Of a stretch of 64,000 bases of DNA, positions 18,101-59,700 are shown one piece after another. Position 1 is the stretch's first letter, and every line of letters starts with the position of its first letter. The notes below the pieces were generated by a model. The model was not told where the DNA came from, ran no database searches, and worked only from the letters and a program-made list of their open reading frames with translations. A program made the translations under genes and the position numbers. This DNA comes from Amoebophrya sp. A120 (lineage: Eukaryota > Protista > Dinoflagellata), in the NCBI GenBank assembly GCA_905178155.1, contig CAJINV010000004.1, forward strand, positions 8,832,411 to 8,896,410, in the 5' to 3' direction.

Positions 18101-19348
18101 TGGATACATCCTGGATCTCTTCGGCGACGTCCCCCGGTCCGCCTTCACCGCGTTTCAGGTCGGCACCCGGAACCACTGGACGGACATCGTGCGGCACGCG
18201 CGGGACCGGTCCTCCTGGGCCTGGCCGTTGTCCATGCTCTGCATCACGAGCCTGAACCTGGTCATGTTTAATTTAGTGACGGCCTCGATGATTATGTCGG
18301 TGTTTGACGAAACCAGTTCCGACAAGGAGATCAGAAGGAAAGCGGCCGAAGCGAAGAAGGCCATGCACTGGAAGATTCTGGTGAACATCTTCAAAGCGAT
18401 GGACGAGGACGATTCCGGCGAGGTTTCGGCCCAGGAACTGGACCTATGCATAGGAAAAATCGATCTGGGTCTGGAACAGTGCAAGTTGTGATGCTAAGAC
18501 TGGAGAAGACAAAAATCTGTGTTGCATAGACGGCAAAAGATAAGTACCCACTTCTTAGAACCACGCAGAGGGCGGGATTTCTCATGCGGAATAGGGATTA
18601 AGGCGCTCTTGCGCAAGCTGGGATGCTTGTGGGCGCATGACGGGCCAACTTTGTGTTCCACGAGATGCGACGACAAACTTTGCTTTCGTCCCGACCCAGA
18701 CAGATTTGCACTTGATATGGCCATGCCATGAACAACAATCCAGCGCTGCAAAGAAGGTTGAACGACATCAACTTGCATCGGGTACTATACACTTTTCGTA
18801 TTTTTTCAGTGGAGTTCTTGTAATATTTCATGGTTTGTATGCAGAGTCACTGTTTTCCGCTTGAGATGCTGCTGATCTTTGAAAAGTCATTTCAGTTTTT
18901 TTCGACGCAAAATATAGATTCTGAAAACAAAACCACTTCCCAGGCCGCCATGGGAGATCTGTGGAGCATCCTCGACGTGAACGGCGACGGGGTGCTCGAC
19001 ATGGAAGAGTTTCTCGAGGGTATGCGGCAGATGGAGGGTCCCGCGAAGTCCTACGACCTGATCAAGATGAATGTGAAGTGTTCCGGGCTGCAAAAACGGA
19101 TTCATAAACTGGGTCACTGGTTCATGGCCACCATCCCGGAAGCCAAGCGACTCGCCATGCTGGTCGACAACACGCACGGCAACATGATGTCGCTGTTCGG
19201 GCTGTTGCGGCCGCTCGAACGGGACGTGTTGCGGATCGTCCGCCACATGGCGGAGGAAAACGAGCTGAAGACTGACGAGTTTGGCATGCCCACCATCGAC
19301 GATATCAGCTTCGGGGAAAAGATAACGATCGAGATGCCAGCGGGCTGA
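15154..19348 (+). CDS. Single-domain voltage-gated cation channel (Ion_trans) with C-terminal EF-hands
   Basis: After removing 9 elements and intron 18782-18943: S1 FEGCVAFFMVFNGVTLAL, S4 RLLRLLKLMRTVR, pore FQVGTRNHW, S6 NLVMFNLVTASM, EF-hands DEDDSGEVSAQE and DVNGDGVLDMEE. Start codon uncertain. Confidence 0.85.
15722..15874. mobile_element. Introner-like element, family C
   Basis: Family C TIR; DR gcggg/gtggg. Confidence 0.85.
15942..16097. mobile_element. Introner-like element, family C
   Basis: Family C TIR; DR tgatg. Confidence 0.9.
16269..16524. mobile_element. Introner-like element, family A
   Basis: Family A TIR with right end TTA; DR ggacg. Confidence 0.9.
16557..16870. mobile_element. 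Introner-like element, family F
   Basis: TATCCAAAGGAAAAAACCGCCCTTCCCAT...ATGGGGAGGGGGATGTTTCCTTTTGATA; DR tttgg. Confidence 0.88.
17098..17311. mobile_element. Introner-like element, family E
   Basis: TATCCAAGAAAAAAAC...GTTTTTTTCTCGCGATA; DR gacgg. Confidence 0.88.
17400..17648. mobile_element. Introner-like element, family A
   Basis: Family A TIR; DR cgatc. Confidence 0.9.
17700..17847. mobile_element. Introner-like element, family C
   Basis: Family C TIR; DR caccg/taccg. Confidence 0.87.
17898..18106. mobile_element. Introner-like element, family E (inverted relative to 17098)
   Basis: Family E TIR; DR catct/catcc. Confidence 0.88.
18445..18717. mobile_element. Introner-like element, family A (diverged)
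   Basis: TCTGGGTC/GACCCAGA core; DR ggacc/tggcc; removal gives ELDHAMNN. Confidence 0.8.
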
Positions 19349-22184: not shown

Positions 22185-25100
22185 ATGGCGGCTGCAGCTC
22201 CCAACAAGCGCGTCCGCAATGGTCCGGTCCCGGTGACCGTGTTGACCGGGTTCCTCGGGTCCGGTAAGACCACCTTGATGAACCACATTCTGAACGACCA
22301 GAACCACGGCATGAAGTTCGCGATCATCGAGAATGAGTTCGGTGAAGTGGGCGTCGACGAGAAGATTTTGCACCAGACCGAGGCGGTCGACGAGGAGGTC
22401 ATCGAGGTGATGAACGGCTGCATCTGCTGCACGGTGCGCGGCGATTTGGTCGAGGCGCTGAAGAAATTGTACAAGATATCCTGAGTAAAAACGTACCCAC
22501 ACCGGAGTCAGGATGGGGATTTTGCAACACAAGCCTAGGAGTTTTAGGAGTCACGCATGACAAGTTGCAGTCCGTAAGGTAGTGCAAGTTAGCAAGGAAA
22601 GCCGCATCACAAATCGACCTTCTGATCCTGTTTACAGCATTACAAGTTCCCAAACACGATTGAAAATGCCTGTCATGGGGTTGCGCATCACAAATGTTCC
22701 TGTCATGGAAAATCTGCATGACAACTCAGGGGTGGGTACGTTTTTACTCAGGATACAAGAAGGTCGAGAAGTTTGACGGGGTCATCATCGAGACCACCGG
22801 GTTGGCCGACCCGGCCCCGGTCGCCCAGACCTTCTTCTATGCAATGCAAAAGTATCGTACTAGTATAAATTGCATTACAAATTCCCCCAGCATTACAAAT
22901 TGACTTTGTGATGCTGATTTACCTTGAGGAAGAGATTTGTAATGCATAAATGCAATTGCTACGAGTACGATTCTTTTGCACAGGATATCTTCGTCGACGA
23001 GACCATCTCCATGCTGTACAAGCTCGACTCCATCGTCACGGTGGTCGACTCCCAGCACATTCTGCAGCACCTGGACGAGGAGAAGCCGGAGGGTGTGGAG
23101 AACGAGTCGGTCGAGCAGGTCGCGTTCGCGGATGTCATCCTGCTGAACAAGACCGACTTGGTCGAAAAGGAGGAGGACTTGGCCAACTTGGAAAAGCGCA
23201 TCAAGTCCATCAACTCCCAGGTATCCACTTATTTTGTACGTGGTTTTATTTTATTCCCATGCTGTATTCAAAATTTTACTAGAACTGCTGCTGTTTAGTT
23301 TTATGCATGCCCGCATATAATTAGTTGTACTAGGACAGTTTATGTGTGCATGTTTTTCGTGCTTCTCCTCTTCCTGAATGTGCTATATGATCATGCTAGA
23401 CAAACGTCAAACCACTACAACCTCTCTCAGGCCCCGATCCACCGCTGCCAGCACTCCAAGGTCGAGCCGCAGAAGCTGTTGAATGTGGGCGCTTTTGACC
23501 TGATATCAAATGTAAAAATGTCTGGGTCTGGAAACTTGTGAGGCTGTGTGGCGTATCATGAGGAGGCGACAATTGCTGGCTCAGCATGACAAGTTTCTGA
23601 GCTTCTAGGTGTTGCCTATTCTGCATGACAAACTACGTTTCTGCATGGCAGAAAAGTGGGGCTCTTTGGTAATGTGCATGACAGATTTAAGATTCATGCC
23701 AAACAAGCATGACAAACTTGCATTCTTCCAGACCCAGACATTTTTACTTTTGATACCTGAAGCGTGTCTTGGAAATGGACCCGGAATTTTTGAACACCGA
23801 CGGCGAACACGCCCACGACTCCGCCGTGTCCTCCCACAGCGTCAGGTATAATAGAGAATTCGGTTGTTTGTCATATGCTGGAATTTCAAGACAATGACAA
23901 TATGCATTCGGAATCCTACCTACGCGAACCTGGTTTGTTCGCGATTTAGACAATCAGTCATATTATTAGTACTTCTTCCCCATCTTCCCTCGATGTGACG
24001 TTATTCTATTCATCGTCCTTCGAGGTCTCCAACGGGAACATAAGAAACTGTGGTACTCGCAACGTGCGCGGCTGTCTATTTAATCAGGCGTAGCATCTTT
24101 TCTGTGCCATACAGTTAACACGACTCATAGAAACTTTGATCTAGCACCAGAAGACACAACTTCCAAGAAATGTATTTTCTAGAATCAGATCAGGATCAGT
24201 TCTTCACACCACGCCCGCTTAATGTTGCGCTAAGTTTCATCAGAACTTTGAGAAAGTGACTATGCTGTCGCCGGTATGACATGACAATAGTATAGTACCA
24301 TTGAATCTCCAAAATCCTAAAACCTGAAATGCAAATGCAACAAACTTCCGATTGTAAGCCTGTTTGGGGTTATAGCTCGAGCTGCTAAAGCAGCATGAGA
24401 GAATCAGTCTTCTTTGCCTAAACAGCATTAGAAACTGGGTTCGAGCTGGAACCCATTTTACGCATGACAAATCATTTCGATTTTGTCCAGGTTCGAGGGC
24501 GACTTGAACGCGAACCGCCTGCAGCGAGGAAATGCTATACATTTGCAAAAGTGCTAACTTGCTCAGTGAATTTGTGGAAATCTCCCAGCACAGGGCGCGA
24601 AGTTGGAAGTAGTACGTGGTGGCTTGGTGGGTCATCCCATCCCAAGTTGCATCAAAAGGGGATCTCCATAAACAAACTAACTAGGTCTCTCGCGCAGTCG
24701 GAGGCTGCGGGTATGCGCCAGGGAGGTATGGCGCAGGGGGGCGCCCGGCAATGCAAGCATCGAAAACGCCTACGCCATAATCCCGGCAAAACCACAGCCC
24801 ACCGGTATGGTGCGGCGGGCTTTGTTCTAGGCTAGATTTCTTTCTTTCAAGGCAGGCGGAAGCCTAAGCAACCAGCCTGCGCTTTCGTCCCCACTGAAAA
24901 TCAGGCCGGCGACATCAAAAGGAAAGGCTCCCTCCCCATATGCATCAAGACGCAACTTCTGCCGGTGGGGGGATCTCCATAAACAAACTAACTAGTACTA
25001 GGTCTCTCGCGCAGTCGGAGGCTAGTACGGGTATGCGCCAGGGAGGTATGGCGCAGGGGGGCGCCCGGCATAGCAAGCATCGAAAACGCCTACGCCATAA

Positions 25101-27457: not shown

Positions 27458-29931
27458 ATGCCGGAAGACGCGGAGGGCCTCGGGAATTACAAGGGCGTTA
27501 TGCTCTGCAACCGCCCTGGCGCAGAACAGGTTGCCGAATCCAGTTCAAAACCCTTTGTTCCCGTCGGCCATCACGAGCCCGTCGGCGTCCCACCCCCGTA
27601 CAACAAGGGCGCAACCATCGTAGACAGGCAGTGGGCGAGTTCGCCGAGAGCAGCCAAGCCGAAAAACAAGATATACGAGAACCATAAAGATTGGTTGAAA
27701 AGTTTAGAGAAGCGTGGAAAAGAGGTGGAGGAGGAAAGGATAAGTAACGAGCTTAGTGCGGAAGAAAAAAAAGTGCGGTTGAAGGTAACTAAGCACTTCG
27801 TAATGATTTGTGTTGCAGGATACACCATGGAGTAGCTTTTATCAAGGGAACGCTTGTTGAAACGGGTTGTCAATGTCATGTGTCAGCGCATGTACGGTAT
27901 TACAATGAATATAACATCAAGAACCAGTGCAAAAAAAAAATCCCATGTCGTCAACATGAATGTTACTATCACCCAGGCCCTCGCGGATAAGTACCGAACC
28001 GACGTGCGAGCCATGATGAACCAAGCAACCGACGAGAAAAAGAAGAGTGCAAAGAAGAGGTCAATACCACTGTGGGTGAAGGAGCGATGGGACAAGCGAA
28101 TCTGTATAGCAAAAATTAAAATTGCTCTGTGATAGTGATTTACGCATGACAGAGTTCTTCCTGTGCTTTCTTCTTCAAGATAAGTAATCTTCTACTAGCG
28201 TAAAAATGCGTAAATGAATCAAATGATCGTGATCCTCCACAACAGTTGAGGAAGCAGTGAACCTGACCCGCACCACGCAGCAAACGGAGGGGGATTCGAA
28301 GGACGAACCTGGAAATAAAGTTCCTCCAATAGAACCGGCTGAAGACCCGGAGGAGCTACTCGACTTTGCGTCCTCGCTGGATTTTGAGCAGTTTGTGGAC
28401 GATTTGGAATTTCGGGAAGCGTTGTCCGTCCTGCGCGACCGGGCGAAAAAGCTGGAGCGGGAGGAGAAATTGTTCCAAATGAACGTGTATGCACTGCAAA
28501 TCTGTCTGGGTCTGAAAAGAAGGGGACTTGTGATGCAAATGTTCCATCATAGAACAAAAACCTGTCTTGCATGAGCAGCAAAATGTACCAAGGTTTTTGT
28601 CACCGGGAGACGGAAACGGAATTTCTTATGCAGGATAGGCATGGGTGGACTGGGCAAGCCTCCGCGAAAGCTGTGATGTGAGGGCATGCATGACAGGCAT
28701 CGCGGGTCATGTACAACTTGCGTGAGAAACTCCCTCAATCCTCCAGACTCAGACATAGTTGCAGTGCATAACGTGGCCGAAATGTTGGCAGAGGAGGGCT
28801 ACACGGGGGATCGCGCGCCAAACCTGTTTTTCTCCGAGGAGCCCAACGCGGTGCTGAGCAAGGAAGACCGGGTATCCTCAGCAACAACGTGCCCACCCCA
28901 TAGTCAAGATGGGGAATCTGCTACATACATCAATAAGCTTTGCCTGTTGCGCATGACAGCCTCGCAATCAGATCTCGCATTAATCATGCTGATACGAGCA
29001 TCACAGATTATCTCAAAACAACACTAGAAAATTCGTCTTATGGGTCTACTTCGCATGAGAAGGATTGTCATCATGCAGGTTTGCATTACAACTCTAGGGT
29101 GGGGGCGATTTTTCACAGGATGCCGGAGGTTGATGAAGATTTTGGCGAAAAAGGAGAAGTTATCCTCAGCAAAAACGTCTCCACCCCATAGTCAAGTTGA
29201 AAAATCTGCAATGCAAGTCTCCAAGTTTTAGGAGTTGCGCATGACAAGTTTCCATCTGCAGCGTAGTGCTGGTTAGCAAGGGAGGCCGCGTGAGAAGGTC
29301 GCTTTCTCTTCCTGTTCACAGCATTACAAATGCCAACACTGGATTGGAAATGCCTGTCATGGAGATGGGCATTACAAATCTTCCTGTCATGGCGGATTTG
29401 TATGGCAATTGTAGGGTGGGGACGTTTTTACACAGGATAGAAGTACCGGGCCCGCATGCCCGCCGGGCTGGTGGAGAAGTACTGGGGCGAGGTAGTGCCG
29501 GATGAGGAGCAGGTATGCATTGCAAATTACTTTCTCTGGGTCTACTGGACATACTGTTGCTGGTAGTTGAATCGCAGAGGAGGAGCTGCTTGTCCGGCGC
29601 AACACCAGCATGGGAAAATGTGCGATTCTTATTGCAGACTCACTCGTAACCGTAAGCCGCATGACTAGCTGATTTAGTATTTCACGGCATGACAAAAACA
29701 TTGGCCAATCGCATTCCAGGCATCATAAATCCTTGTTGTCCTTCTGCTTCAACTCTTGCATCACAAATCCAGACCCAGATCGATAATTGCAACGCATAGG
29801 ACGAGGATGAGGTAGAAACGGCCACCGACGTCTCACAGCTTGTGGACGATGTGATGCCCAAACTCAAAGCCATCCACTCCAAGGCCAGCGCAACCAAGGC
29901 GGTCACCACCGCGGTTGAGGGCAAGGAGTGA
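27458..29931 (+). CDS. Conserved-looking hypothetical coiled-coil protein (YKGVMLCNRP...LDFEQFVDDLE...LKAIHSKAS)
   Basis: Open frame after removing 4 elements and two GT-AG introns. Confidence 0.7.
28488..28770. mobile_element. Introner-like element, family A
   Basis: DR acgtg. Confidence 0.87.
28873..29122. mobile_element. Introner-like element, family B
   Basis: DR ccggg/ccgga; right end ATG variant. Confidence 0.82.
29161..29439. mobile_element. Introner-like element, family B
   Basis: DR gaagt. Confidence 0.9.
29514..29798. mobile_element. Degenerate family A element, also a valid GT-AG intron (29513-29799)
   Basis: TATGCATTGCAA..TCTGGGTCT / AGACCCAGA..TTGCAACGCATA; DR gcagg/ggacg. 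Confidence 0.75.
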
Positions 29932-33523: not shown

Positions 33524-35110
33524 ATGTTGCTGTTGCGAACGAGCATCAAAGCCGGCTTGCTTGCCTGCTGTTTCCTGCTTCGTTGTCCGTTCTCCGCCGC
33601 TGCGGGGGTAGGTTTTTCCGGCGGAAAAGCGTCTGCATCAAGTAGAAGTGGTAGCACTAGCACTAGCCCGCGCGCGCGTGCTACGGACGAGGGCACTTCT
33701 AGCAGTACTGCTGTTTTTGACGACGCTAACATCGCGTCGAACATCCTTTCTTTTCCGGTCGGAGAAGCGGAAGATCCTTCGCGGGAGCAGTTGCGGGCCC
33801 GAGCACAAAAAAGGCTCGACGATTTTCGACGCGTGGCTGCGAAAAATCTGAGCCAGCAAGAAGTCTCACAGAGCGGCGGTGTACTGCAGCAGTTGGCCCA
33901 GTTTTTGGTTGGCGCGCTGAACGAAAAGTCCTCGCCGGGCGGCCGGAAGAAGGTGGCGTGGCTGAACAAGGACACTTCGCGCCTCGTTCCCGCGTCCACC
34001 GGCGCCGCCGGGAAACAAGCGCTGGACGCAGACCAGACGCATGTTGCTTGCCGCCCTTGGGGGAGTCACAATACAGATGAGATTTTCCTCCTCGAGACAC
34101 CGTGGCCGTCCGACGGCCCCCAGAAGTTGTTCACCGATAAACGGACGGTTCTAAATGGGATGGTTCTCGATTCGGCGGAATACAAAAAAAAGCTACCGGA
34201 AATGCAACACTGGGTCTTCGAGTTATCCTGAGTAGAAACGCCTCCACGAGGTGCGTGGACCACCCCATAGTTAAGATGGGAACTTGGCAACACAATAAAT
34301 CCAGAAGCTCTTCGAGTCACCACGCATGACAAGCTTCTCTCTGTAGTGTAGAAGTGCAGGATAGCTGCGAGGAGGACAGCCGCGGCGTTGCAAATGCATC
34401 TGCTTCGTCTCCTGTTTACAGCATTACAAATTTTTACAAAAGAAGAGGACAACGAGAAATGCCTCTCATGGGGATCATGCGCATCCCAAGCGTTGCTCCG
34501 TATGCAAATGTGCATCACATCAACTATGGGTTGGGGACGTTTATTTTCCTTAGGATACACAGGCGATGTAGACCAACTCGAAGCGTCGTCATCTTCGGGG
34601 TTCCACAAAGACAGGTTTCCGCTGATTTTTGCCTCGGTCGAGACGGAGATGCCGGAGGAGTTTCGACGCAGCGCGGATCTCCCGGAGGAGTTTCGGCGCA
34701 GAGCGGAGGCGTTTCGGCGCAGAGCGGCTGGGTATGTATATCCGTTCTTCGAGGCGCGCGGGCTAGGGTATTATGTTCACGGCGCCCGCGAAGGCGAACG
34801 CGAAGATCTGGTGCTGAAGTTTTCCGCGTCCCCCCTCAGCTTGGATTCGTTGCAGAGTCTTGCTACCCCGGAACGAAGTTTTTTTCTTGGTCGGTGGAGC
34901 TACCCGCGCAATTGGCTCCTTGCGGAAGGAGACGGGGTTTTTACCTTTATCCGCTGTGCAAGTCCTGCAATTCCGCGTCGGGATTCTCGAATTCCATTTC
35001 CTACTTCTCGACCCAACGGTTCCACTTCCGAGGAACGCACCTTTTCATACTTTTCATATCTTTACTCTAGCAGTCCTGGGTGCGAGGCGACTGTCTGCTC
35101 GCCCGCCTAA
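33524..35110 (+). CDS. Secreted-protein paralog 2 (1 element)
   Basis: Signal peptide; shared motifs REQLRARAQKRLDD, CRPWG, FEARGL, DLVLKFSA, NWLLAEGDGVFTFIRC and GCEATVC. Confidence 0.8.
34224..34557. mobile_element. Introner-like element, family B (diverged)
   Basis: Family B TIR; flanks cgagt/cacag are a decayed DR; removing 5 nt gives WVFTGD, matching paralog WEFTGD. Confidence 0.8.
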
Positions 35111-36665: not shown

Positions 36666-39600
36666 ATGTTGCGTTTGCGAACGAGTAAAGCCGGCTTGCT
36701 TGCCTGTGGGTTCCTGCATGGCTGTCCTTTCTCTGTCGCCGCGGGGAGTTCTTCTGGCGGAGCCTCCAGTAGAAGTTCGAGCGCAGGCAGCGCATCATCG
36801 TCGTATGTTGACTTTCTTCCGGACGATAGCATTCTGCGCTCGGCGGCGGCTCTTTCTGATGACCATCCGACCAAGGTGGCGTCTTTGCGCGAGATTGTTG
36901 GCAACGAGGTTTGTGATGAGGCAATTAAAAGCGCGCTACGGCTTACACGTGGGAACGAAGAAGATGCGGCGCATATGCGAGTGCACGACTCCACGACCCT
37001 CCCCTCATTTACAGAGCATGAACAGCAATACAAGCGTCGACAAGATGAATGCGGAGGGTCTGCAGGACAAATTCACACAGATTTGTAGTGCTGTGTGGAG
37101 GGCCGGCGTTGAAAGAACCTGTCTGTCATGCAGAAAGTATGCCAAGAACAAAAGCAAAGATAAAGACGGGACGCGAAAAGAAAATTTTGCGTGACTAATT
37201 ATTTGGGGAAGTAGGGGAGTCCTCGTGCACTCTCATAGCGCAGATTCTGCTACTCGCAGGCGACCAGGGCGGGGACGATGACGGAACCGAAAGTAGTGGG
37301 ACAGATGAAGAAAGAACGGACCACGGTGCTACTACACCTCCAGGCAGCTCTGCTGCTCTTCCCACATCCAGAGCGAGGTCCTCGACCTCGCGCGGGCGGC
37401 GCTCGCCGCGGAGCCGGTCCGGCAGTGCGGTTTCGCGAATTTTTCAGTCACCAACGTCCCGTCGTACCAAAGAAGTCTCGGGGGCTCCTGCCAAGGACAG
37501 GGAAGACGCAAGAGGACGCGGCCAGGGGGACGTAGCGGAGCTAGCGGCGAAGCTCGGAGCGCTCGAAGTGAGCGAAGTTGTAGACCCCGTAGAGCAGAAC
37601 ATCGTAGAAACGACCATGGGCGGCGCAGGTAAAAGTGGGAGCTGCACGTCCGGGCCCGCGTCCGCTTGTAGTTCCCGTACTTCTCGAGAAATTTGGGGCC
37701 GCGGTAAAATCGTCGCCAATATCGTCCCTTTCGCCGCCGGAGTAGCGGATCTGCCGCGGGAGCAGCTGCGGGCCCGAGCACAAAAAAGGCTCGACGATTA
37801 TGTGGGCACGATTCCGAGCAAGCACGTGAGACTGAGACAGGAAAATGGGGTATTGCGCCAGCTGGGCCGCGATTTTTTGGCTGGCGTGCTGCAGGAAGGG
37901 CTGGCGCGGGAAGAGAGCCGGCGGACGGTGGCGCAGCTGAACAGGGTCAGTAAACGCACCGCGGTCCCCCGACCGTTGGGTACGGAAAACAAGGCTCTAC
38001 TGAATGCACAGCAGACCTATTCCTGCCGCCCTTGGGGGAGTCGTCCCGAAAGTGAACCGGTTCTCCTGCGGTCGCCGGGCCAGACGTCTCACACCATGGT
38101 GTTGCACGAAAAAGAGTATTTCAAAAAGTTACCGGAGATGCAAGAATGGACCTTTATCCTGAGTGAAAACGTCCCGCCCACGATTCATAGACGTCAAGAT
38201 AATTACATGGCAGTTTATTACACAAGCCAAGAACTACATGTTTTGACTGTTTTGCGTGAAAACCTTGCCTCTCTGGTTGTGTAGAAGTCTCAGTCAGCTG
38301 GAGCAGTTGCGTCACAAATCGACCCTGAATGAGGTTGACAATAGCTTGCCGGATAGTTAAAAAAAAAAGTTAGCATCAGAAAATGCTTCCTGTTCTCATG
38401 GAGTTTGCTGCGCATGAGACACAATGTGGACCTGTTGCAGATTCACACGACAAAGAACATGGGGCGGTGCAAAAATTCCTTCAGCATGACAAATATGGGG
38501 TGGGGGCGTTTTTGCGCGTGATCACCATCACGGGAGATTTAAGCCGTCTCGAAGGCTGGTCTACCTCCCGTTTTCGCTTGCCGTACCATATTGAAAAGTG
38601 CCCGCGCGACCCCAAATGTCGAAGTGCTTGTATTGCAAAATTTTTCAATGCTGGAAACATATCCGACCTTGCATGTATCAGCATGACAGGTTTTCAAGCC
38701 AGAGGAGCGGAAGTCTGTGTGGCACAGCGCCAGGTAGTATGTAAGCAGTAATCGTCTTATTGAAGTCGTATAAATGGCTTTAGGAGATTCTAAAGCAAAG
38801 CGCGTCGCGTTCCGTTTATCATCCCCCTGGCATTTGTTTTCCATAGCATTGCAAAAAGTTTCCCTGGGGACGATGAAAATTTGCAATTCAAACTGTTCGG
38901 TCACGTCTGGTGGTGGGGCGGTATTTTTCATTTTGATGCGCCTCTGCTTTTCTATGCGGAAGAAACAATGTTGGAACACTCGATTGGCAACCCGGTCGGG
39001 TTTCGCGGATGGCAGAAAGGAGCAATCCTTTCCCGTAGTTCCCAGCCGGGCCCGGCTCCGGAGGAACCATTTTTCGAGGCGCGCGGTATCCTGAGTAAAA
39101 ACGTACCCACACCAGAGTCAGGATGGGGATTTTGCAACACAAACCTAGGAGTTTTGTGAGTCACGCATGACAAGTTGCGCTCTGCAGTGTAGTGCAGGTT
39201 AGCAAGTGCAGCCGCATCACAGATTCCTCCGCTCATCCTGTTCACAGCATCACAAATTCCAAAACACGCTTGGAAATGACTCTCATGGGCATGCGCATTA
39301 CAAGTCTTCCTGTCTTTGCAAATCTGCATTACAACTCTGGTGTGGGTACGTTTTTACTCAGGATACGCGGATTGAGATATTCTCGACACGAACGCGGAAT
39401 GCATGATCTGGTGCTGAAGTTTTCCGCAATCCTATCAAAAGGAAAAATCCCCCCTCCCCATATCGAAAACGAAATTTGTGATGCTGTATTTGAGTACACA
39501 AATCGACTTGTAATGCTAGAAGGCCAAGAGACGCAGCTGTGGCCTCGTTTGAAGGCAATTTGTCATGCTGTTCCCCACTTCCAGCTGCCCCCTGTCATGC

Positions 39601-40552
39601 TGAAGATGCAAGGCTTTCCCACGCCAACCAGCACTACAGTCCGCATCTTTTCCCTTCTAGCATGACAAAGCTGATTTGTGGCCACAAATCTGCATCACAA
39701 ATCTCTAGTGTGAGTATGGGGTGGGTGGATTTTTCACTTTCATAAATCCCCGTAAGCAGGGACACGCTGGAGGAGCTGTTAGATTTCAAGAGAGGTATTA
39801 CACAGCGCTCGCTATGAAATGTAAAAATGTCTGGGTCTGGAAGAATGCAACTTGTCATGCTAAATCTGAAGCATGCAAAAATCTGTGTTGCGTGTTTACC
39901 AAAAGCTGTCCACTTTTGACCTAATCGAGAGGCAGTTTCTCATGCAGGATAGGCATGAGAAAGGTCTCGCAGAATCTGTCATGCTATGTCCCACATACCA
40001 GACGAGACCTCGTGGGTCATGGAAAACCTGCATGACAAAATCTGGCAATCGTCTAGACCCAGACATTTTTACAGTTGATAATCGCAGTTTCCGACCAATT
40101 GGCTCCTTGCGGAGGGAGACGGGGTTTTCACGTTCATCCGCTGCAGGGAAAACCCGGGAGGCGCCATGGCAGGGGCTCGCTTATCAAATGTAAAAATGTC
40201 TGGGTCTGGAAGAATGCAAGATTTGTCATGCAGCTTTTCCATGACCCATGCGGTCTGGAATGCAGGACCTAGCATGACAGATTCTGTGCGATCTCTCTCA
40301 TGCCTATCCTGCATGAGAAACTCCCTCCCGATTTGGTCAAATAAACTGGACGACTTTTGGTAATCATGCAACACAGATTTTTGCATGCTTCAGATTTAGC
40401 ATGACAAGTTGCATTCTTCCAGACCCAGACACTTTTACATTTGATATCCCTTTGCGGATTCTGATTTCCGCAAATACGGCGACCCCACGAACAAGTATTA
40501 TCACAGTGTGGGCTGCGAAGCGGCCGTCTGCAGCTTGCCCATGCCCGCTTAA
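36666..40552 (+). CDS. Secreted-protein paralog 3 with UBA-like insert (7 elements)
   Basis: Frame restored through 7 elements to GCEAAVCSLPMPA*; same family motifs as paralogs 1 and 2. Confidence 0.8.
36974..37237. mobile_element. Introner-like element, family D (diverged)
   Basis: DR gcgca. Confidence 0.85.
38155..38523. mobile_element. Introner-like element, family B (diverged)
   Basis: DR acctt/accat; removal gives WTFTGDLSRL. Confidence 0.8.
38584..38938. mobile_element. Introner-like element, family F-like (strongly diverged)
   Basis: Weak TIR; DR tgccg/cgcct; absent from both paralogs; removal gives RLPLLFY. Confidence 0.65.
39087..39365. mobile_element. Introner-like element, family B (young, perfect 32-bp TIR)
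   Basis: TATCCTGAGTAAAAACGTACCCACACCAGAGT exact inverted pair; DR cgcgg; site is empty in both paralogs. Confidence 0.97.
39433..39744. mobile_element. Introner-like element, family F
   Basis: DR aatcc. Confidence 0.9.
39813..40080. mobile_element. Introner-like element, family A
   Basis: DR ctcgc/atcgc. Confidence 0.9.
40182..40446. mobile_element. Introner-like element, family A (inverted sister of 39813)
   Basis: DR tcgct/tccct. Confidence 0.9.
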
Positions 40553-41912: not shown

Positions 41913-44257
41913 ATGAAGATCTCTGCGAGGAACATCAAACGTTTTAATTGCTCGTGGAAAAAGGGACAAAGGCGTTCCTCGCTTCTCCAAAGATGGTTCA
42001 TCTTTCTGCGCGTCGCGCAGTTTCTGGTGCGCAGCACCTTCGGCGCAATGAGCGGGGCCGGGCGAGAAGAGGATCATCGGGGGGTGGAGGGGGCACGACA
42101 GCATGGTGTGAAGAAAACAAAACCGTTGTTCCGCACTCCGACCCCCTGTCTCCGCACCGGATCCGGCGACCTAGAGTACGGCATTAACCCGTTGGAAAGC
42201 GCGCTTGATGGGTCGAGAGTGTTCAAACACCACGAAATTTTCTGCCACTTTCCCCCCTTCGTCGCGCCAGCGAACCGCACTATTCTGTACGAGTTCAGCG
42301 GCCTCAAGGTCCCCGTCCGCTTCGACTGCGCGAACCAGCGGCAGTGGCACGTCTGGGGCACGTTCGATTTGGGCGTGAAGGCGTATAGAACCTCTGATGG
42401 GGTGTTGCTCACGGAGCAGCAAGCGCGGAGCCGGCACTTTGAGAACTTCCGGGACGTGCCCGGGTTGACCAACATGTTTGCTTCCGGGGACAGCACTACA
42501 AGCAGTCTCACGTTCGCCGAGATGTTCCCCCCCTACACCTACTACGCGCAGAGCATGGACCGGCGGTACCAGTGTCACGTGCACGCGGCCATGCTCCAGG
42601 CGTTCATGCCAGTCTACCAAGTGCCGCTGCCGGTGATGGACGAGGAGTACGACGAGCATGTGCAGGTGTACCAAAGCGTCTGGGAATACTGGAAGTCGCA
42701 TGCGGACGGGATCATAAGAACGACCAAGGTGTGGAACTACAAGAACGGGAGGTTTAGACGTGGGAAAGATGTTGAATCAAAATCTCTTCAAAATCCTAAA
42801 CCTGTACCTGCTTCTTCAGCCTCCACTGCGGCCGCGAAGCCAGTCCCCCACCGTCCCTTCGTCTTCGTCGAGGCTGGCGGGCGCTGGGGCACGTGGGGGT
42901 TCCGCGCGTTGCAGGCCTTGCGGCAATTTGCGCTGACTCAGGACGATCAGGCCCCCGCCGGTGGCGGTGGCTGGACCACAGACGAGAGAACAAGAAGCGA
43001 AGCAGTTGTTCCTGCAAATAAAATTCCATACCACATAACGGATAAAAACGCGTTTCTTCATTTCTTCGAGATGAACCCGATTTTCTGCGACGGGATCCGG
43101 GAGATGGCGAGAGTGAACCACTTCCCACTGTCCACCCACAGGCTCCGCATCTACTGCCGCCCCTTCAATCTGGAGTTGTTTGGCTCGATTCTGGCGGATC
43201 GGCGGCATACGCCGGTCATCGACGTTCTGGACATGGATATTCAGGGCGGGGAGTCCATCCTCTCGGATGTGGACAAAACGTACCCCCTGTTGTGGGACCT
43301 GATGTGCACAAAGGTGAAAAAAGTCATCATCGGGACGCACAACAAATTCACACACGAGGCAATCGTCGAAACCTTCCTCGGGCGGAAGCGGAAAAGTTAT
43401 GAAGTGGGTGCACCAGCAGCTCCTGTGTGGGAGTTGGTCGCCGAGATGCCGCACCGCCACGCCGTGCAAGCAAACATATGGATTGCAAAAATGTCTGGGT
43501 CTGGAAGATTAGAACTTGTCATGCTAAAACCAAATCATGGAAAAATCTGTGTTGCATGACTGCCAAAAGCTGTCCTCTTTCGACCAAGTTGGGAGGGGGT
43601 TTCTCATGCAGGATAGGCATGACAGAGACCTCACAGACTCTGTCATGCTAGGTCCTGCATTCCAAACCTCGTGGGGCATGGAAGATATGCATGAGAAGTT
43701 TGCATTCTTCCAGACCCAGCCATATCTGCATTTGATAAAACAGCACGTTCAGCAACTGGAACTTCACGATGGTGGCAAAAGCGATGGTACCAAAATGAAA
43801 AATCCCCCCTCCCCATATCGAAAGGGAAGTCTGTGATGCTGTATTTGCGTACACAAATCAGCTTTGTCTTGCAGTAGAGCACCCCAGGCAGATACAAAGC
43901 CCGGAAAGGGGTGGCTTGAGGTAGGCACTTAGCATGGCAGACGTCTGCCCCATTGGCGCATCAGCATTACAAATCTCCTGCGAAATGCGGCGGAAGCTCT
44001 GGCTTTGCTCTCTTGCAAGACAAACTCGATTTGTGACCACAAACCAGCAGCGCAAATTTTCGAAAGTACGCCTTTTCGATATGGGGAGGGGGGATTTTTC
44101 CTTACGATAGATGGCGAGGGAACGACGTCGTAATACGGGCAGTTATATCGCTGGTGGTGAAACAGAAACAAGTCGTGAGGATGAGGAACAATTTGGCATG
44201 ATCGCGAATCAGGATGGAGAACTAGTTTTCAGGAACTTAAACCTCATCGGGAAGTGA
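41913..44257 (+). CDS. FkbM-like SAM-dependent methyltransferase
   Basis: FVEAGGRWGTWG (motif I), FEMNP, IDVLDMDIQGGE, VKKVIIGTH; C-terminal QDGELVFRN after removing 2 elements; start uncertain. Confidence 0.75.
43477..43737. mobile_element. Introner-like element, family A
   Basis: DR aaaca. Confidence 0.9.
43788..44109. mobile_element. Introner-like element, family F
   Basis: GAAAAATCCCCCTCCCCATATCGAAA / TTTCGATATGGGGAGGGGGATTTTTC; DR gatgg. Confidence 0.9.
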
Positions 44258-44702: not shown

Positions 44703-47281
44703 ATGGCAAGGCACTCTATTCCCGTTCGCCTTGTCACCTTGTTTTCCTTCTTTTCTTTGTACCTCCAGAACGTTCGCGCTCTGAAGTTGTGGAGCTGGAT
44801 CACCGACGGGTGGCTGCCCCGAGTAGTGTGAGCAAAAACGTCCCCACCCCATAGTTGTCATGCTAATCTACACGCTTAAAATCTGTCTCATGCGGAGCCC
44901 CACGAGAAGCATTTTCTAGCCGCTTTTTGGACTTTGTGATGCTCGAATCAGCATGAGCTGCTAGACCTGTGATGCTGCTCCGCTGGCTAAACAGGACTGC
45001 GCTACGTGGCCAAACTTGTCATGCCCAACAGCCAAAGCTTGTTGATTTGTCTAGCAGATTTGCCATCTTGACTACGGGGTGGGGACGTTTTTGCATAGGA
45101 TACCGAGCGGAATTTGTTCTAACGCGAGACTTGTTCGACCCGGTGCGAGACCGCGTGGCCCTCTACCCTCGCGCGTCGCGGGACCTGCAGCTGCGAAACG
45201 CATTGACTGCGGGGGTGGCAGCTGCTGCGCAGGATGACCTTGTTCACGTGCAGCCCCTGGGACGGGCGACCTCCGAGGAGGCACCGAGTCCGACGGGAAC
45301 TGCGATCAATTATGCGGGAACTTCTTCACAAGAAGTACTAGCACCAACTGGTGGAGCAGCTGCTGCTAGAAGGGCTGCTGCTGCTACTGCTGCTCAAGAG
45401 GCGGGTGCTGCTAGTGGAGGTGGTCGTCGTACTGCAGGAGAACACCGAACAAGCGAAACAACTGAGGGGCGCAGCAGTGACGAGAATTCTGGAAGTATTA
45501 ACACGAATCATGCAGAAGCCAGTGCGCCGTCGATGGCCGCCAGCGGGATGATAGTACAACAGGAACAACTACAAGCACAGCCACAGCACGAGTCCGACAA
45601 TAACGATAACCGCAATGACAAGTCGCTCATTCCGCACTGGTTTGATTTCCTGCGTTGCCTCCCCGTGTTCGGGCCCATTTTTCACTCGGGCATGAATCCC
45701 GACGACTTTTCGGATTTCGTGGTGGATCCGAGCTGGGACGTAGCCAGGAAAAAACACTCATCCCCATCCATTTTTTGCATGACAAACACTGCAACGTATG
45801 CACGTTTTGCATGACAAATTGGATGGGGCTGGGTGTTTTTTCCTGGATAGAATGTGCAACACGGGCATTATTCCAGGTGGTTTCCCTGCTTTAACACGGT
45901 AGAGGACCCGGACGAGGGATCCGGGCCCCTGTGCACCGAGCTGACCAACCTGCGCGAGCTTCAGAAAAACTGTCTCTGTTGCTCCGCGACGCTGCTCACC
46001 TGCGGTACGGGCGGCATGCTCGGCACCTTCCCCGACCCGCGCATGATCGGCGTAATTTGGGCGGCCCACGTGGGCGGCTGCGCGGCCTGTCACCTCATGG
46101 TGATCAGTGCGCAGAAGCTGCACGAAAAGTTTCAGCCCGCCGAAGAGAACGACGACGCGGAAACCCGGCCTTGCTGTCTCGGAGTCTGCCGCCTGCGGCA
46201 GCGCCGCCGGCAGCAGGTTCTTGCTGGGGAAGAGGGAGCAGAGGGAGATCTAGAGGCGGATCAGGCCGTTGCTGAGCGTGGTGGCCTTGGACGAGTACAG
46301 CTGCATGCGTGCCGCCGCTGCAGTTCCTTCCTCCGTTCCCACCTGCCGCAAGTCGCCGGTCTGAGTAAGGAATTCAAGCGCCTTCCCCGAAGTAGAGCAG
46401 AGCTTATCAACCGGCGGTTGCCCGAGGGCATCTACCTGCCGGAGGCCGACGACAGCACATTCACCTCACCCCGTCAAGCAGGCGCGCCGGGCACAAGACC
46501 TCTCGTTGCTGGGTTGTGGTGCCTGCAGCTCAGCCCTGCTGACGCCCGCGGTGTGTTCCGCGGCACGGAGGGGGGCGAGGCAGATCCCAATGTTCCGTGC
46601 CCTGTTTGTGCGGAGATGATGGAGCTCCACGGACGAAGATCTCATGAACAGCAATACCGGCCCGGTAAAAATGTTGCTGGGGCTTCATCATCTGCGGTGG
46701 ACACGAGGAGCCGTGGCGGGGAAGGCTCCTCTAGTACTGCAGGTTCAACATCCACTTCTTCATTTCCTTCCCGTTCCAGTATCGGAATTTTGCAGTGCCC
46801 GGGTGAACACGCGATCTGCCGCGGCTGCGCGGAGAATCTCTCCGTCCGCCACATGTGGGAATGCCCCACCTGCCGTGGCTTTGTGGGGGCGCGAACGACG
46901 GTGTGTAGCTCTTTCTCTCGCAGCTGTTCAGTTGACGAAAGACAAGAGCAGCTTCGTGCAAGAGCTGGTCGTGCCGCTGGTGCTGCCTTCAGCGGCCCGC
47001 TCGAGAGGGTGGACGCTGCCGACCCAAGCGAGACGACAGAAGCAGCAGGAAGTGCTGGAGGTACTAGTGCCACGTCGGTGGCGAATGGACGACGCCCATC
47101 TTCGAGGGCCTCGAGGCACTTTGTAGGTTGGGTGCTAGCCGCAGCGCCGGCAGCGGACTCAGCTGCGGCATCGCAGGAGGCGGATCTGTTTTCTCCTCCT
47201 TCATATTGTTCCGGGGCAGCAGGAGCTTTTCAACACGTTCTCGGAGAAGCGAAGCCGGTGCAACAAACCATGACTTTATGA
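44703..47281 (+). CDS. Signal-peptide and transmembrane RING-finger (C3HC4) protein, putative E3 ligase
   Basis: CPVC...CPGEHAICRGC...CPTCR; hydrophobic N-terminus and mid-region; 2 elements. Confidence 0.7.
44824..45102. mobile_element. Introner-like element, family B
   Basis: DR ccgag; left end TAG variant. Confidence 0.87.
45741..45849. mobile_element. Short 109-bp element (family G), also a GT-AG intron 45740-45850
   Basis: CCAGGAAAAAACAC..CCCCATCCA / TGGATGGGG..GTGTTTTTTCCTGG; DR ggacg/gaatg. Confidence 0.8.
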
Positions 47282-47935: not shown

Positions 47936-48597
47936 ATGTCGGCAAACTTGACGCAGACGGTTCTGACTCTGAATAAGGAGTTCGACAAGGCTCAGGACAA
48001 CCTGCACTCGATTGCTATGGAAGTGTCAGAATCGAAATTGACAAAATCGAAAAATTTGTGATGCACAAAATCGATGTCAGTTGGAGCCTCAGTCTCCAAG
48101 TGGCGCATGACAAATTTCGGGAGCACCCAAATCCAGTTTGTCATGCAGTTTGGGCGAAGAAGACTCCTCCTGTCATGCTACCCTGGCAGCACATTTTATA
48201 ACCCTAAACAGGCTCACAATCGGTCTCATTTGCCTGCTCCCCAATACAGGCCTTCAGTGCCCTACATTTTACGCATCACAGATCATTTCGATTTTCTTTG
48301 TTGATTTCGATCCTGACAGTTCCATAATTGCCCAGCTCTGCAGCCAAGCGGAAGAGCGGATCCGCAAGTCGCAGTCGCTGCAAAATGACTTTGCACGGTA
48401 CAGGATATTGGTCTGGTGTTTGTCAACTACATACGAGATGAGTACACATGCATGGCAGTATTTGATGTCATGCAAGTAACTAAAGCTATAGCTCTGTCAA
48501 AAATTCTCTCAGGCAATTCCACCGGCTCTCTGAGCAGACGCGGCAGATCATCACCGCTGCAGAGTCGCTGCAAGACACGGATCCGACACTGAAGTGA
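47936..48597 (+). CDS. Small (~76 aa) coiled-coil protein, missed by the ORF track
   Basis: MSANLTQTVLTLNKEFDKAQDNLHSIAQLCSQAEERIRKSQSLQNDFARQFHRLSEQTRQ..., after removing one element and a GT-AG intron. Confidence 0.7.
48016..48326. mobile_element. Introner-like element, family H
   Basis: TATGGAAGTGTCAGAATCGAAAT / ATTTCGATCCTGACAGTTCCATA; DR attgc. Confidence 0.88.
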
Positions 48598-54127: not shown

Positions 54128-56028
54128 ATGGTCGTGACCCGTTCCCCCCTCCACCCCCGAACGCTCGCGAAGGCGCTGACTGTCCTCGCACTCACGACTA
54201 CTCAGCACCTGGTAGATGCGAAGAAGAAGGGGAACAAGAAGAAAAATGCGAAACCCAGCTACTCAGAAGATAACATACCACCCGGCGGCGCGAACTACGA
54301 CGACATTCTTGGCGGTGGGGGAAAGGGAGGACTTGGGGGCCTCGGCGGACTCGGCGGAGACGACGGGTATGGGGATTTGTTCAAGCCAGAAACCAACTGC
54401 CCAGTTTTCACGTGCCCAAAAGGACAGAAGCCGGTGCAGAAGGGTGGGAGTAAAAAGAAGGACTTCCCGGTGGTTTACGGTTGCGACGCGAGTTCCTTTG
54501 ACATGATGATGATGCTGGATCCGAGTAATCTAAACGGCGCGAAAAAGGGGGGAACCAGGGAAAAATTGTGGAAGGTATAATAAAGTAGAGCTGCTGCAAA
54601 TTGTTAGTGCAATTGGAGGTTGCGATCATGCATGATTGACAAAACACAACTCATACTATGCCTGATGCTTTTTCCGCATCGCGATCTCATACACTACGAA
54701 AAATTATCAGTGTTGTGTCGGGCGGGACATCGGACAGCAAACTTGCGTATCAAATGCAAAAATGTCTGGGTCTGGAAGAATGCAAGTTTGTCATGCTTGT
54801 CTGGCATGACTCGAGAATCTGTGTTGCATAGCCACGAAGAGGCCCTCTTACCTGTCATGCAAAAACGCAGTTTGCCATGCGGAATACGTAAGACATGGCA
54901 GCCAAAAAATTCGTCATGCGTAGCTGCGTATTGCAGTGCGTTTATCATTCACTTTCAGCATTACAAGTTTCCAGACCGAGACATATTTGCAATCCATATT
55001 GCGGCAGAACGAAGAAAGAGATAGAGGACGACTTTGGCACATGTACAAACAAGAAATGCAAGGGAGATAAGAACTGCAAAATGAACGCACAATTCGGTTC
55101 CATGATGTCCGGGGGAATCAGTGGCGACAAATGCGACGAGTATAGGGATATTTAAACAACTACGTGAATTTAAATTTTTTTCTATTTTGTCATGCGGTGC
55201 ATGCACGAGCACGAATCTTCTGAGCAGTGTGTCAATCAATCTGTGTAGCTGCATCATGTTTAATACATATACAACATTATCATCCAGGTACAACAAATCC
55301 CAAGCAGCGAACTGCGAGTGCGTTCCGGAGGATGACACGCAAGACTCCTTCAAAAAAGCTTTGAAGGGTTTCTACGGGATTTTTGCAAAAGAGAAACTGC
55401 CGAAGGACGGCGGCGAAATCGACGACCAGTGGATGTCCGAAACGGTGTACAAAAGCTTCAAGAAGGGACAAGAGCCGAAGATCTGGTAATTTTTGATTAA
55501 AAACTTGACAAAATTGACACGAATGGAAACGAAGTAGTACCACAGCATGACAAAGAATAAGAAAAACACTTCTTTTGGGTGGAAAAATTTCTGCATTTGA
55601 CAAAAAACTCCTTAAAAACAGGAACGCTCTGTTCACAAAATACTCCTCCAATCTCCGGCACGAGGACAAGCCGAAGCCAAAATACGACTACCCGCCCCCC
55701 ATGGACGAGGACCTGCCGGATATGAAAACCTCCAGTAGTTCTGCGGATGCGAAGAAAAACACAGAAAAACCGGCAAAAACCTCCAGCACATATGAACTGC
55801 AAAAGTATCGTACTCGTAGAAATGCATGACAAATTCCCTCAGCGTGAGAAATATAATTTGTCATGCGGATTTAGCTTGAGACGAAAATTTGTAATGCATG
55901 ATTGCGATTACTACGAGTGCGATACTTTTGCACAGGATAGCACAACCACCACCACGATGCCCGGGGATGACGACTTTGGGGCGACGCTTGGGGGGGACGA
56001 AGAACTAGTCGAAGATGTGGAGTTGTAA
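54128..56028 (+). CDS. Secreted group XII phospholipase A2-like protein (probably inactive)
   Basis: Signal peptide; CPVFTCPKG..VYGC..KCCVGRDIGQQTCGRTK..F..C...C..YNKSQAANCEC pattern; GT-AG introns 54575-54710, 55140-55287 and ~55487-55621; ends EDVEL. Confidence 0.75.
54748..54998. mobile_element. Introner-like element, family A
   Basis: DR ttgcg. Confidence 0.9.
55791..55939. mobile_element. Introner-like element, family C
   Basis: DR gcaca. Confidence 0.9.
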
Positions 56029-56719: not shown

Positions 56720-59700
56720 ATGGAGCCCTCCAGAAACACCCCCTCCTCCACCTCCTCCTCCGCCGCCGCGCCACCGCCTCCGGAGCCAAAATGGGTCGTA
56801 TCAAGTGCAAAAATGTCTGGGTCTGGAAGATTTCTAGATTTGCCATGCATATTTTCCATGAGCAATGATGTCTGTAATACATGCCGCAGCATCACAAATT
56901 TTTAGAGGGCTTTGTGATACCTCTACCGCATGAGAAATGCCGTCTCCGCGTAGGACAAACCCGACCCCTATCCTTGCTGGTCATGCAATACAAATTTTTT
57001 TTAGAATCCACAGACAGCATCACAAGTTGTGACCTTCCAGACCCAGACATTTTTGCAGTTGATAGGTCGCGAAGATGAGCAATTTTGCGATCCAATACAA
57101 CCTCACCTGTGCCTCTGCCGCACTCGCTGTGATAAGAGATGCAAACGCTAATATCAATCCGAGCGAGACTCCACCGCCCGGGGCGATTCCCGCAGAGCCC
57201 GCCTGGGCGTCCCAATTCCTTCTCGCCGCTGTCTTCGCCGGGACGCTGGTCGGGATGCTCACGATGGGCTACCTAGGCGACAAACTCGGAATCCAGACGG
57301 CTATGATCTTGACCCAGGGCATCACCGTGCTCGCCGCCTTTTGCAACGTCTTTGTTGCGCCGTTGTGGCTCGGGAATGGGGGCGGGGAAGGACCGGTGGT
57401 GGAAAGGAGCGGAACACCAGCAACATCAAGTTTTGACCCGGTACTACAAACGCATCCTCAAGCCGGCGCGGAGGGATTCTATTCCGGTTTCGTTTTCGCG
57501 AGGTTCTTCCTAGGCGTCGGTGTTGGCGGGATGTACCCACTCTCCGCTGCGAGTTCCGTTGCTTCGATGAGCACAACTACCGCCTCAAATAACGAAATAA
57601 ACCCTCCTGATGAACCGCGCACCAACTACCCCTCCGCGATTGCGAAGCAGGCCGGGAAAGCGTTTCTGTGGCAGACGCCGGGCGTGATTGCGCCGTACCT
57701 GGTGACGTTGCTGGTCTGCGATAGCGCGATCGACAGCAGCGGGGGTGCAGCGATTAGTACTTCGAAGAACTGTATCAAAGAAAAAAAGTTCGTCACGATC
57801 ACTCATGCGCATTCTTGCAATACAAAATTGTTTGTCATGCGTAAAAATGCATCACAGCCAAACTTTATTAGGGATCTCCCTAGTGTTTCTGCAATACAAG
57901 GAAAGTTTGTGATGCTGAGAAAACTTCTAATGCAAAACCTGCAAGTTAGTGACTGTGACAAACTTTTTTCTCTCCATAAACTGGTCTGTTCTGTCCCAGT
58001 TCCAGACTATTGTCGGACTGGGGATGGTGCCCTGCTGTCTGGTGCTCGGGAGGCACTGCTACGCGGTTTGGGCCGTCGGTGGGAGAAGAGGGAATACTGC
58101 AACAGGGAGCGTGAGGACGGTGGGTACTGCAACTGCTGGTGCAGCGCAGCAAGTGCAACCACGACCAGCGGGCCTCGAGATAGCACGCGATGTGGAGCTC
58201 GGGCATTCAAACTTATGGAAGTGAAGAAAAAGTAGTATGTTGACAGGGTTTTTGTCATGCTGAAGCTGAGTGAACTGTTGTGTCGAGGAAAATAGAGGAG
58301 CGAAAACGCCAGATACACTGAGGAACAAAAATAATCATGACGCATTATAAATATATCCTGTTACAACGCTACACGTTCACTAGCATATGGCACGCTTTCA
58401 GCATCTTCAGCAGCTGCAAACGCGCGAGGACGTGATCAGCAGCGCCAACAAGGAGCAGTGTACAATCCGAATCTGCGGGAGGAGCTGTTGTCCACAAGTG
58501 CAGCGGGGGCCCATGCACACCAGTCGCAGTCGGGTAGTAGATCGGTTCTTCAGTCACCTTCAGGCAGTTCCTCGTCCAGCAGCATGGACAAAAGGCTTCT
58601 CCTTCTCCTGATCGGCAGCGGCGGCACCTGGTTTCTGTTCGACGTTAGCTTTTTATGAGAGTGCACAACCTGCCCCCTCATTTGTATGGCATGAAAAGCA
58701 ATACAAACAGCACCATACGTGGAGCCTGTGCATGACAAACTCATGTGCCGAATGTAGTACTGTTTGGGCTCCCAGAATCTGTCATGCAAACAGTACCACA
58801 GGGATGCACTTGAATTTGGGATTTTGCATGACAAACGAGGGGGAGGGAGAGTTGTGCACTGTTATACTTTTACGGCACATCCGTCTTCGCTCCGTTCATC
58901 ATCGTATGAAAGTGCACAACCCCGCCCCCTCCCCCTCATTTGTATTGCATGAACAGCAATACAAGCGTCAGCAAGAATACAGGTTTTGCATGACAAATTT
59001 GCACTGGATTGTGGTGCTCTTTGGGCTTCCAGGATTTGTCATGCAAACAGTGCTACAAGGCAGCAGCTGGATTTGGAATTTTGCATGACAAATGAGGGGG
59101 AGGGGGAGTTGTGCACTGTCATACATCGAAAAGATTCTCCCACAGGCATCCCTTCAAGCGGTCTGCTGGCAAACGGTGTTGTCGAATCTGGTCGGCGTGG
59201 TTGGTTCCCTCCTCTCGGTCGCGCACGTAAGCAGTACCAGCTGCCGACAGGGACTGAGGCTCGGGTTTGTGCTTTTAGCGACGGCTTTTTTTCTCTTCTC
59301 CGTCGTTGAGCATTTCAAGATCGAGCTGCCGCCACTTGTTTCTGGGGATCCGAAGAAAACGGAGGGGTTACTGGCGCTGATCCTCTATTACGTGCTGCTT
59401 GTTTGCTGCAACTTCGGCCCGAACGTCGCAACCTACGTCTTGCCCATGGTGTGCTTCCCGAAAGAGTCGCGCGTGACGTACCACGGCCGGTCAGCCGCGT
59501 GCGGGAAAGCGGGGGCCTTTCTGGGGACGCTGGTCTACCCGTTGTGTTTGCCGGTCGTGGGTGTGCCGGGGATCATGGGGATTCAAGCGGTTGTGAGCTT
59601 CCTGGGGTACGTTATTGCGGAACTGTTTGTGGGCGAAGGGGAGGGAGGTGGTGAACAGACCGGGAGTGGTGCTCCTGCGCGAGATGTAGCACTTGTATCA

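Follow-up and report, generated by a model that had tools for sequence, protein, structure and literature searches.

Removal of introners from transcripts in both orientations

The elements that interrupt the genes of the window (the whole 64-kb stretch of DNA that was analysed) are the published transposon-derived introns, or introners, of Amoebophrya sp. A120, and as such they are already known. Our results strongly support their removal at the RNA level irrespective of the orientation in which they lie. On balance, we favour the reading that these known introners are removed both ways via their inverted ends, likely at a fixed register and probably by the spliceosome. The orientation independence itself follows from the inverted ends and is ordinary as an observation, given that transposons with inverted ends insert in both orientations.

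Searching the window for inverted ends bordered by repeats delimited 41 elements. A relaxed scan returned mostly chance pairs, but three of its candidates were confirmed by protein mapping and were added to the set. The resulting 44 elements with terminal inverted repeats are 109–369 nt long and occupy 11.0 kb of the 64-kb window. Their 5′ terminus is TA in all 44 cases (TAT in 40) and their 3′ terminus is TA in 41; A is found at positions 11–13 in 37, 42, and 38 of 44, respectively, giving the inverted-repeat motif TAT-N7-AAA. A perfect 5-nt target duplication flanks 31 of 44 elements (chance 0.0014 per pair), the two copies are unequal at 13, and direct repeats of 6–9 nt were found at the borders of none of the 44. 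The elements belong to repeated families, and their inverted-repeat ends, constant target duplication, and empty homologous sites are those of MITE/TIR transposons; the insertion sites are spanned, at the protein level, by an element-free paralog and by the A25 orthologue.

In terms of orientation, which was scored on the element interiors after 45 nt had been trimmed from each end, the families (labelled A–F for this analysis) were represented in the window as 8:6 (A), 3:5 (B), 4:2 (E), 1:1 (F), and 5:0 (C). One family of five members (4144, 10200, 36974, 58654, and 58905) is uniform in orientation, a sample too small to indicate bias. The initial annotation had singled out four pairs of related, inverted elements, and global alignment bore this out: the inverted arrangement gave 88% identity and the forward one 62% for 39813–40080/40182–40446, which are separated by a gap of 101 nt, and the corresponding values were 88% versus 62% for 17098/17898, 77% versus 66% for 5441/6868, and 79% versus 63% for 3646/22477. 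The motif GCATNACAA (≤1 mismatch) occurs in 247 copies in the window, 194 of them inside the 11 kb of elements, and forms one-way arrays in several families; these arrays are likely transposase-binding repeats. As a branch point, this internal motif was rejected.

Contigs of runs X3–X6 skip all 12 elements in 15000–24200. These runs represent one sample, and their RNA status was guessed from lost GT-AG introns and missing silent stretches: the contigs that skip elements also lose two GT-AG introns, and two silent bins of the same interval have zero depth. In X3, at least 3 of the 17 elements in 28300–48299 are skipped among the contigs listed. All 15 RNA-type skips equal the element length plus 5 nt, and the ion-channel gene has nine elements, every one of which is traversed by one X5 contig with a depth of 40. 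The same length plus 5 nt is removed at 17 of 17 elements within P0001–P0004, which are deposited Amoebophrya sp. A120 proteins with 100% identity; the deposited gene models are built on transcript alignments, and the sequencing runs are possibly the data underlying the assembly and the gene models. Both orientations are skipped in family F (17098 versus 17898), family E (15722 and 22838 versus 15942 and 17700), and family A (17400, 18445, and 43477 versus 16269 and 23504). Orientation-independent removal, as the initial annotation had proposed it, is thereby upheld in three families. With respect to their borders, the elements are non-GT-AG: 1 of the 44 is readable as GT-AG at any register. 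In the raw RNA run X13, coverage was present on element-derived sequence only, with none on exons.

Every element that was checked lies in a + strand gene. Removal of each element with 5 nt opens long + strand frames for an ankyrin protein, an ion channel, a CobW protein, and an MFS transporter (the ion-channel and MFS_1 domain matches are under curated cutoffs). The genes and elements are as follows, where c is the count of upstream repeat bases retained in the mRNA.

2512..9144, + strand, ankyrin-repeat gene (P0004) with 7 introners and 8 canonical introns
2599..2886, introner of family B in P0004; c 1–5
3646..3924, introner of family B, removed as length + 5 in P0004
4144..4363, introner in P0004
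5441..5704, introner of family A, orientation a, removed as length + 5 in P0004
5757..5915, introner in P0004
6868..7129, introner of family A, orientation b, removed as length + 5 in P0004
7955..8220, introner in P0004
15157..19557, + strand, ion-channel gene interrupted by 9 introners and a single GT-AG intron; PF00520 match on one exon, under the curated cutoff
15722..15874, introner of family E; RNA skip 158; c 2–5
15942..16097, introner of family E, opposite to 15722; RNA skip 161
16269..16524, introner of family A, orientation b; RNA skip 261
16557..16870, introner of family D; RNA skip 319
17098..17311, introner of family F, one orientation; skip of 219 nt (length + 5) in X3, X5, and X6
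17400..17648, introner of family A, orientation a; RNA skip 254
17700..17847, introner of family E, opposite to 15722; RNA skip 153; c 1–6
17898..18106, introner of family F, opposite to 17098; skip of 214 nt in X3–X6; duplication mismatch giving c 0–4
18445..18717, introner of family A, orientation a; RNA skip 278; c 3–5
22477..22755, introner of family B in the CobW gene (PF02492), opposite to 3646; RNA skip 284
22838..22987, introner of family E in the CobW gene; RNA skip 155
23504..23755, introner of family A, orientation b, in the CobW gene; RNA skip 257
28488..28770, introner in gene P0003
28873..29122, introner in gene P0003; c 0–4
29161..29439, introner in gene P0003
29514..29798, introner in gene P0003; c 4–5
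43477..43737 and 43788..44109, introners of family A (orientation a) and family D; both skipped in X3 contig 12, which keeps 45 nt between them, an inner piece deduced from the coordinates of the record
45741..45849, short introner; X3 contig 14 joins 45739 to 45854; c 4–6
10200..10421, 36974..37237, 44824..45102, 48016..48326, 54748..54998, and 55791..55939, further elements, from sequence only
56799..57064, 57773..57978, 58654..58866, 58905..59123, and 62390..62641, further elements, likewise

The elements of the four inverted pairs had been said to sit in + strand genes with intact frames, and this is what we found. Removing the length plus 5 nt gives deposited A120 proteins at 3646, 5441, and 6868 (P0004) and at 39813 (P0002), and the weakest case is 40182, for which the paralogs alone provide the frame; RNA-type contigs from which + strand GT-AG introns are missing also lack the elements at 17098, 17898, and 22477. 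The A25 orthologue P0005 aligns without gaps over six of the seven P0004 element sites at the protein level.

Inverted sister elements at 39813 and 40182

The inverted sisters at 39813 and 40182 lie near the 3′ end of a gene with no Pfam family, which has two tandem paralogs; one paralog contains a single element and the other none, and the alignment spans the sites.

36666..40549, + strand, host gene, no Pfam family; 7 elements (36974, 38155, 38584, 39087, 39433, 39813, and 40182)
38155..38523, introner in P0002; c 4–5
38584..38938, introner in P0002; c 1–5
39087..39365, introner in P0002
39433..39744, introner in P0002
39813..40080, introner of family A, orientation a; duplication CTCGC/ATCGC; removed as length + 5 in deposited protein P0002
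40081..40181, + strand, exon between the sisters, 96 nt once spliced; NWLLAEGDGVFTFIRC conserved in two paralogs
40182..40446, introner of family A, orientation b; duplication TCGCT/TCCCT; frame from the paralogs
34224..34557, introner of family B in a paralog; direct repeat 1/5; P0001 reads FEGD; c 3–4

P0002 is partial and ends at 40171, short of the element at 40182. The exon downstream of 40182 matches the C-terminal GCEA motif of the two paralogs, which is the sole support for the frame there, and 36666–37489 and 40447–40549 are putatively part of the host gene, as judged from the paralogs. The absence of 39813 from the transcript is accordingly read from a deposited protein and that of 40182 from paralogs; the RNA contigs listed showed no junction at either element and no exon of this gene.

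The tandem paralogs, which have no Pfam family, lie at 31178–32425 (0 introners), 33524–35107 (1), and 36666–40549 (7), which makes them a natural, if small, series in which to follow insertion into duplicated copies. The elements at 34224–34557 and 38155–38523 have related ends, and in the two paralogs concerned their sites are homologous but offset by 5 nt. The repeat loss at 34224 looks as if the downstream copy had been deleted and compensated by five new upstream bases.

Position of the cut

The RNA junctions restrict c to 2–5 (15722), 1–6 (17700), 0–4 (17898), 3–5 (18445), and 4–6 (45741), and c = 4 is the sole value that fits all five. The protein junctions give 0–4 (28873), 4–5 (29514), 3–4 (34224), 4–5 (38155), 1–5 (38584), and 1–5 (2599); thus c = 4 is compatible with all 11 informative junctions, which are those with imperfect duplications, and the junction at 39813 is silent on c. 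Assuming independent uniform cuts, the probability that all five protein junctions checked after the RNA result would include c = 4 is 0.026, and the probability of any shared c among ten junctions is 0.008. Between c = 4 and its mirror, c = 1, all six discriminating junctions fall on the side of c = 4, with both polarities of the internal motif included; two of these six may represent one ancestral insertion, each bound of the register comes from three junctions, and four of the six derive from deposited gene models rather than reads. At 34224, where the repeat has decayed to 1/5, P0001 reads FEGD and both paralogs read FTGD, indicating that the excised length is counted off from the element and that the ancestral sequence is not rebuilt. 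A fixed register N/TA...TA NNNN, cutting 1 nt before and 4 nt after the element, is therefore quite probable.

Across the 11 junctions, the register tracks the direction of the transcript and not that of the element. It had been argued initially that directional spliceosomal signals are excluded by the two orientations of the sisters; this argument is not supported, because the inverted repeat shows the same 5′ and 3′ end both ways and the cut is polar with the transcript. The genes of the window are all on one strand, and transcript and chromosome polarity are separated by the environmental set alone, for which gene directions were predicted. This set came from a metagenome scan that yielded 151 loci (L001–L151) with 135 candidate family-A elements, 104 of which have a perfect 5-nt repeat. 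Seventeen of the 135 candidates were dropped as badly delimited, and direction was assigned to 89 of the remaining 118; the predicted gene directions were correct in 24 of 27 validation cases. Orientation relative to predicted gene direction was 47:41, with one ambiguous case (n = 89). In one environmental assembly, the same family was found with the same ends and the same 5-nt duplication.

Splice signals and the machinery of removal

In the mechanism that we propose, a trans-acting DNA transposase would have inserted the elements, and their inverted ends would offer the pre-mRNA an identical start and finish in both orientations, permitting removal either way. The intron would consist of one base, the element, and four bases, polar with the transcript, as the 11 junctions suggest. 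Its 5′ end would be read as a donor without the requirement for G at +1 (N-U-A versus canonical G-U-A). The 3′ cut would fall 4 nt past the point where the repeat ends and would need no AG; this distance would probably be measured from a hairpin that forms during transcription. The cutting itself would probably be performed by the resident spliceosome. Orientation independence is compatible with the spliceosome, which would be a better guess as the catalyst than the alternatives.

Standard spliceosome chemistry requires G at +1 and a final AG. Read at c = 4, 19 of the 44 introns start with GT, and none of the 44 combines a GT or GC donor with an AG acceptor (GY-AG). T at +2 and A at +3 are present in 44 of 44 elements at the same reading. 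Each of the 12 canonical donors found in the window begins with GTA, over which this register places the invariant TA. Among 133 elements, changes in the terminal TA numbered 0 at the 5′ end and 6 at the 3′ end (p = 0.03). Both the match to the GTA donors and the better-kept 5′ TA are consistent with the 5′ repeat being read like a donor.

A possible but clearly less probable explanation is that the same RNA-level removal, at the same register, is carried out by a nonspliceosomal nuclease and ligase that gauge the distance from the paired ends, a mode proposed for the nonconventional introns of Euglena. The introner borders have neither AG nor a fixed +1 base, the unequal spacers of 1 and 4 nt are akin to the 3 and 5–6 nt of Euglena, and positions 9–14 of the element ends are predicted to pair in 38 of 44 elements. 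Furthermore, U1 was not found in A120, according to the accessible text of Farhat et al. 2021 (PMC7789003); the presence of most spliceosomal proteins and of U2, U4, U5, and U6 speaks instead for the spliceosome. However, the register brings the invariant TA into exact alignment with the GTA of canonical donors, the asymmetry between the 5′ and 3′ TA is unexpected under pure pairing, and the element ends have no G.U bias: G.U versus A.C pairs at the first 15 positions numbered 17:27 in the 44 elements, with no sign of selection for an RNA stem. Sense and antisense folding did not differ (p = 0.22), and positions 4–8 of the ends pair in just 23–31 of 44 elements.

At equilibrium, inverted sisters are predicted to fold with each other and not with their own ends, the outer complementarity reaching 94/100 at the pair 39813/40182. 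The elements at 17098 and 17898 are nevertheless removed separately in RNA with the inner exon kept, so recognition must be local or cotranscriptional. At 39813–40446 and 17098–18106, the predicted 200-bp stem encloses the inner exons and could yield exon skipping or circular RNA. The initial annotation had placed recognition in symmetric features, namely the hairpin, the TAT ends, or the shared motif. For features present at both ends this view stands, whereas the shared internal motif drops out, being polar in several families and having no forward copy (≤1 mismatch) in the spliced elements 17898 and 18445. An excess of G at position 5 of the duplication (19 of 44) has its mirror image in an excess of C at position 1 (15 of 44) and was for that reason rejected as a splice signal. 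The first exon base is a purine in 25 of 44 cases in the window and in 61 of 89 in the environmental set, the latter figure being partly circular.

We consider it fairly likely that tens of thousands of A120 introns follow a second, orientation-blind splice code, N/TA ... TA NNNN/, with a donor lacking G and an acceptor set by distance without AG. If this is true, any element with such ends would be spliced out exactly, whatever its site and orientation, and the code would account for the genome-wide invasion of introners. It would imply either that the spliceosome is no longer bound by the two terminal rules or that a ruler mechanism like that of Euglena has arisen independently a second time. 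The fixed, transcript-polar register is a precise hypothesis, checkable on public reads, for the splicing question raised in the accessible text of PMC7789003, and it would permit intron borders to be re-annotated and the A120 and Euglena codes to be compared directly.

Direct repeats and excision from DNA

It is unlikely that the direct repeat guides RNA-level removal, in which case the cut could fall anywhere within it and the shared register would be a small-sample coincidence. Such a model would suit the 31 of 44 junctions that are unlocatable owing to a perfect repeat, as well as the variable splice sites, 1–5 nt from the repeat, given in PMC7789003; this published spread may be what aligners yield on a 5-nt repeat. 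It is opposed by the presence of c = 4 at every informative junction (p about 0.01–0.03) and by the persistence of length plus 5 nt where the repeat has decayed to 1/5 (34224) or 3/5 (18445, 29514, 38584, and 45741).

Ciliate IESs have boundaries with TA ends and short direct repeats, resembling the introner ends; they likewise interrupt coding sequences as short segments and are removed precisely with one repeat copy. They differ in that the A120 elements are retained in the DNA assemblies examined and have a polar cut. X1 contigs, which are DNA-like and have a depth of 41–48 over introns and spacers with no differences, span at least five elements whole and cross at least eight further element ends, including three elements skipped by X3. 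Absence from somatic DNA, by which IESs are defined, was thus not observed in these contigs, in which rare variants are invisible. To our knowledge, Amoebophrya has no separate germline nucleus, so excision from DNA would be inherited. The initial suggestion that the elements are excised from the genome ahead of transcription is therefore very improbable: although RNA by itself cannot separate DNA excision from splicing, and contigs drop rare variants so that rare excised forms would escape notice in X1, the X1 contigs run unbroken through element ends, even at elements skipped in X3, the RNA-type runs include contigs in which an element end runs into foreign flanks, like unspliced RNA elsewhere (or DNA traces), 118 environmental copies were assembled intact in DNA, and the polar cut needs no pointer repeat, removal at 34224 proceeding with a direct repeat of 1/5.

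Comparison with known systems

The A120 introners of Farhat et al. 2021 (PMC7789003) have inverted repeats in which an initial TAT is separated from AAA by seven variable bases, direct repeats of 5 bp, and a length of ~240 nt. The accessible text calls their splice sites 'variable' and the border position 'unknown', and states that >60% of A120 introns are removed without GT-AG, apparently without U1. The elements of the window share the organism, ends, repeats, noncanonical boundaries, and RNA-supported removal with these introners, and no difference in kind from that text was apparent; their 5-nt duplications fall within the 3–5 nt range of A120 introner border repeats. The present analysis adds two-way insertion and the −1/+4 register, the word 'orientation' being applied in that text to genes only. 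In the accessible literature (subscription papers and figures being outside its scope), no analysis of a fixed register or of orientation was found for Amoebophrya. The search method of Gozashti 2022 permits opposite-orientation insertion, Gozashti 2025 lists A120 introners as derived from diverse TIR transposons, and PMC11453091 is a further paper in the literature compared, each as far as its accessible text extends.

The closest analogue of the proposed register is the spacer code of the nonconventional introns of Euglena, N3CDG...CHG N5-6/R (Nomura et al. 2025, PMC12501133). Inverted-repeat ends, unequal spacers, a proposed MITE origin, and the presence of GT-AG introns alongside are common to both. 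The two systems differ in lineage and motif: the window elements have a TA repeat with apparent spacers of 1 and 4 nt and do not show the CDG/CHG repeat with spacers of 3 and 5–6 nt. In addition, the A120 elements form large multicopy families with intact 5-nt duplications, unlike the Euglena introns as described in the accessible text of PMC12501133. In Fritillaria borealis, introns derived from nonautonomous TIR DNA transposons are removed by the U2-type spliceosome (PMC11282704; bioRxiv 10.1101/2025.08.15.670264); in the accessible parts of these sources, the boundaries favour AG-AC/AG-AT, whereas in A120 the target duplication supplies all or part of both terminal dinucleotides, the 3′ one being free. 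Terminal inverted repeats, a constant target duplication, the lack of coding capacity, both orientations, and subterminal motif arrays are shared with MITEs, from which the A120 elements differ in occupying coding exons and being exactly spliced out.

Other features of the window

A 39-nt duplicate of the CobW exon start, with its own AG, is present at 24488–24526 and 25240–25278. The RNA-type contigs carry the 25240 variant at the single base that differs, and the duplicate copy seems to be skipped. This duplicate adjoins a decayed relative (24348–24484) of the element at 48016. A 21-nt tandem array at 20460–21194 lies in a coding frame that specifies many Lys and Glu residues. Small indels relative to high-identity X1 or X3 contigs were found at 34541, 40854, and 45372, representing assembly slips or strain variants.
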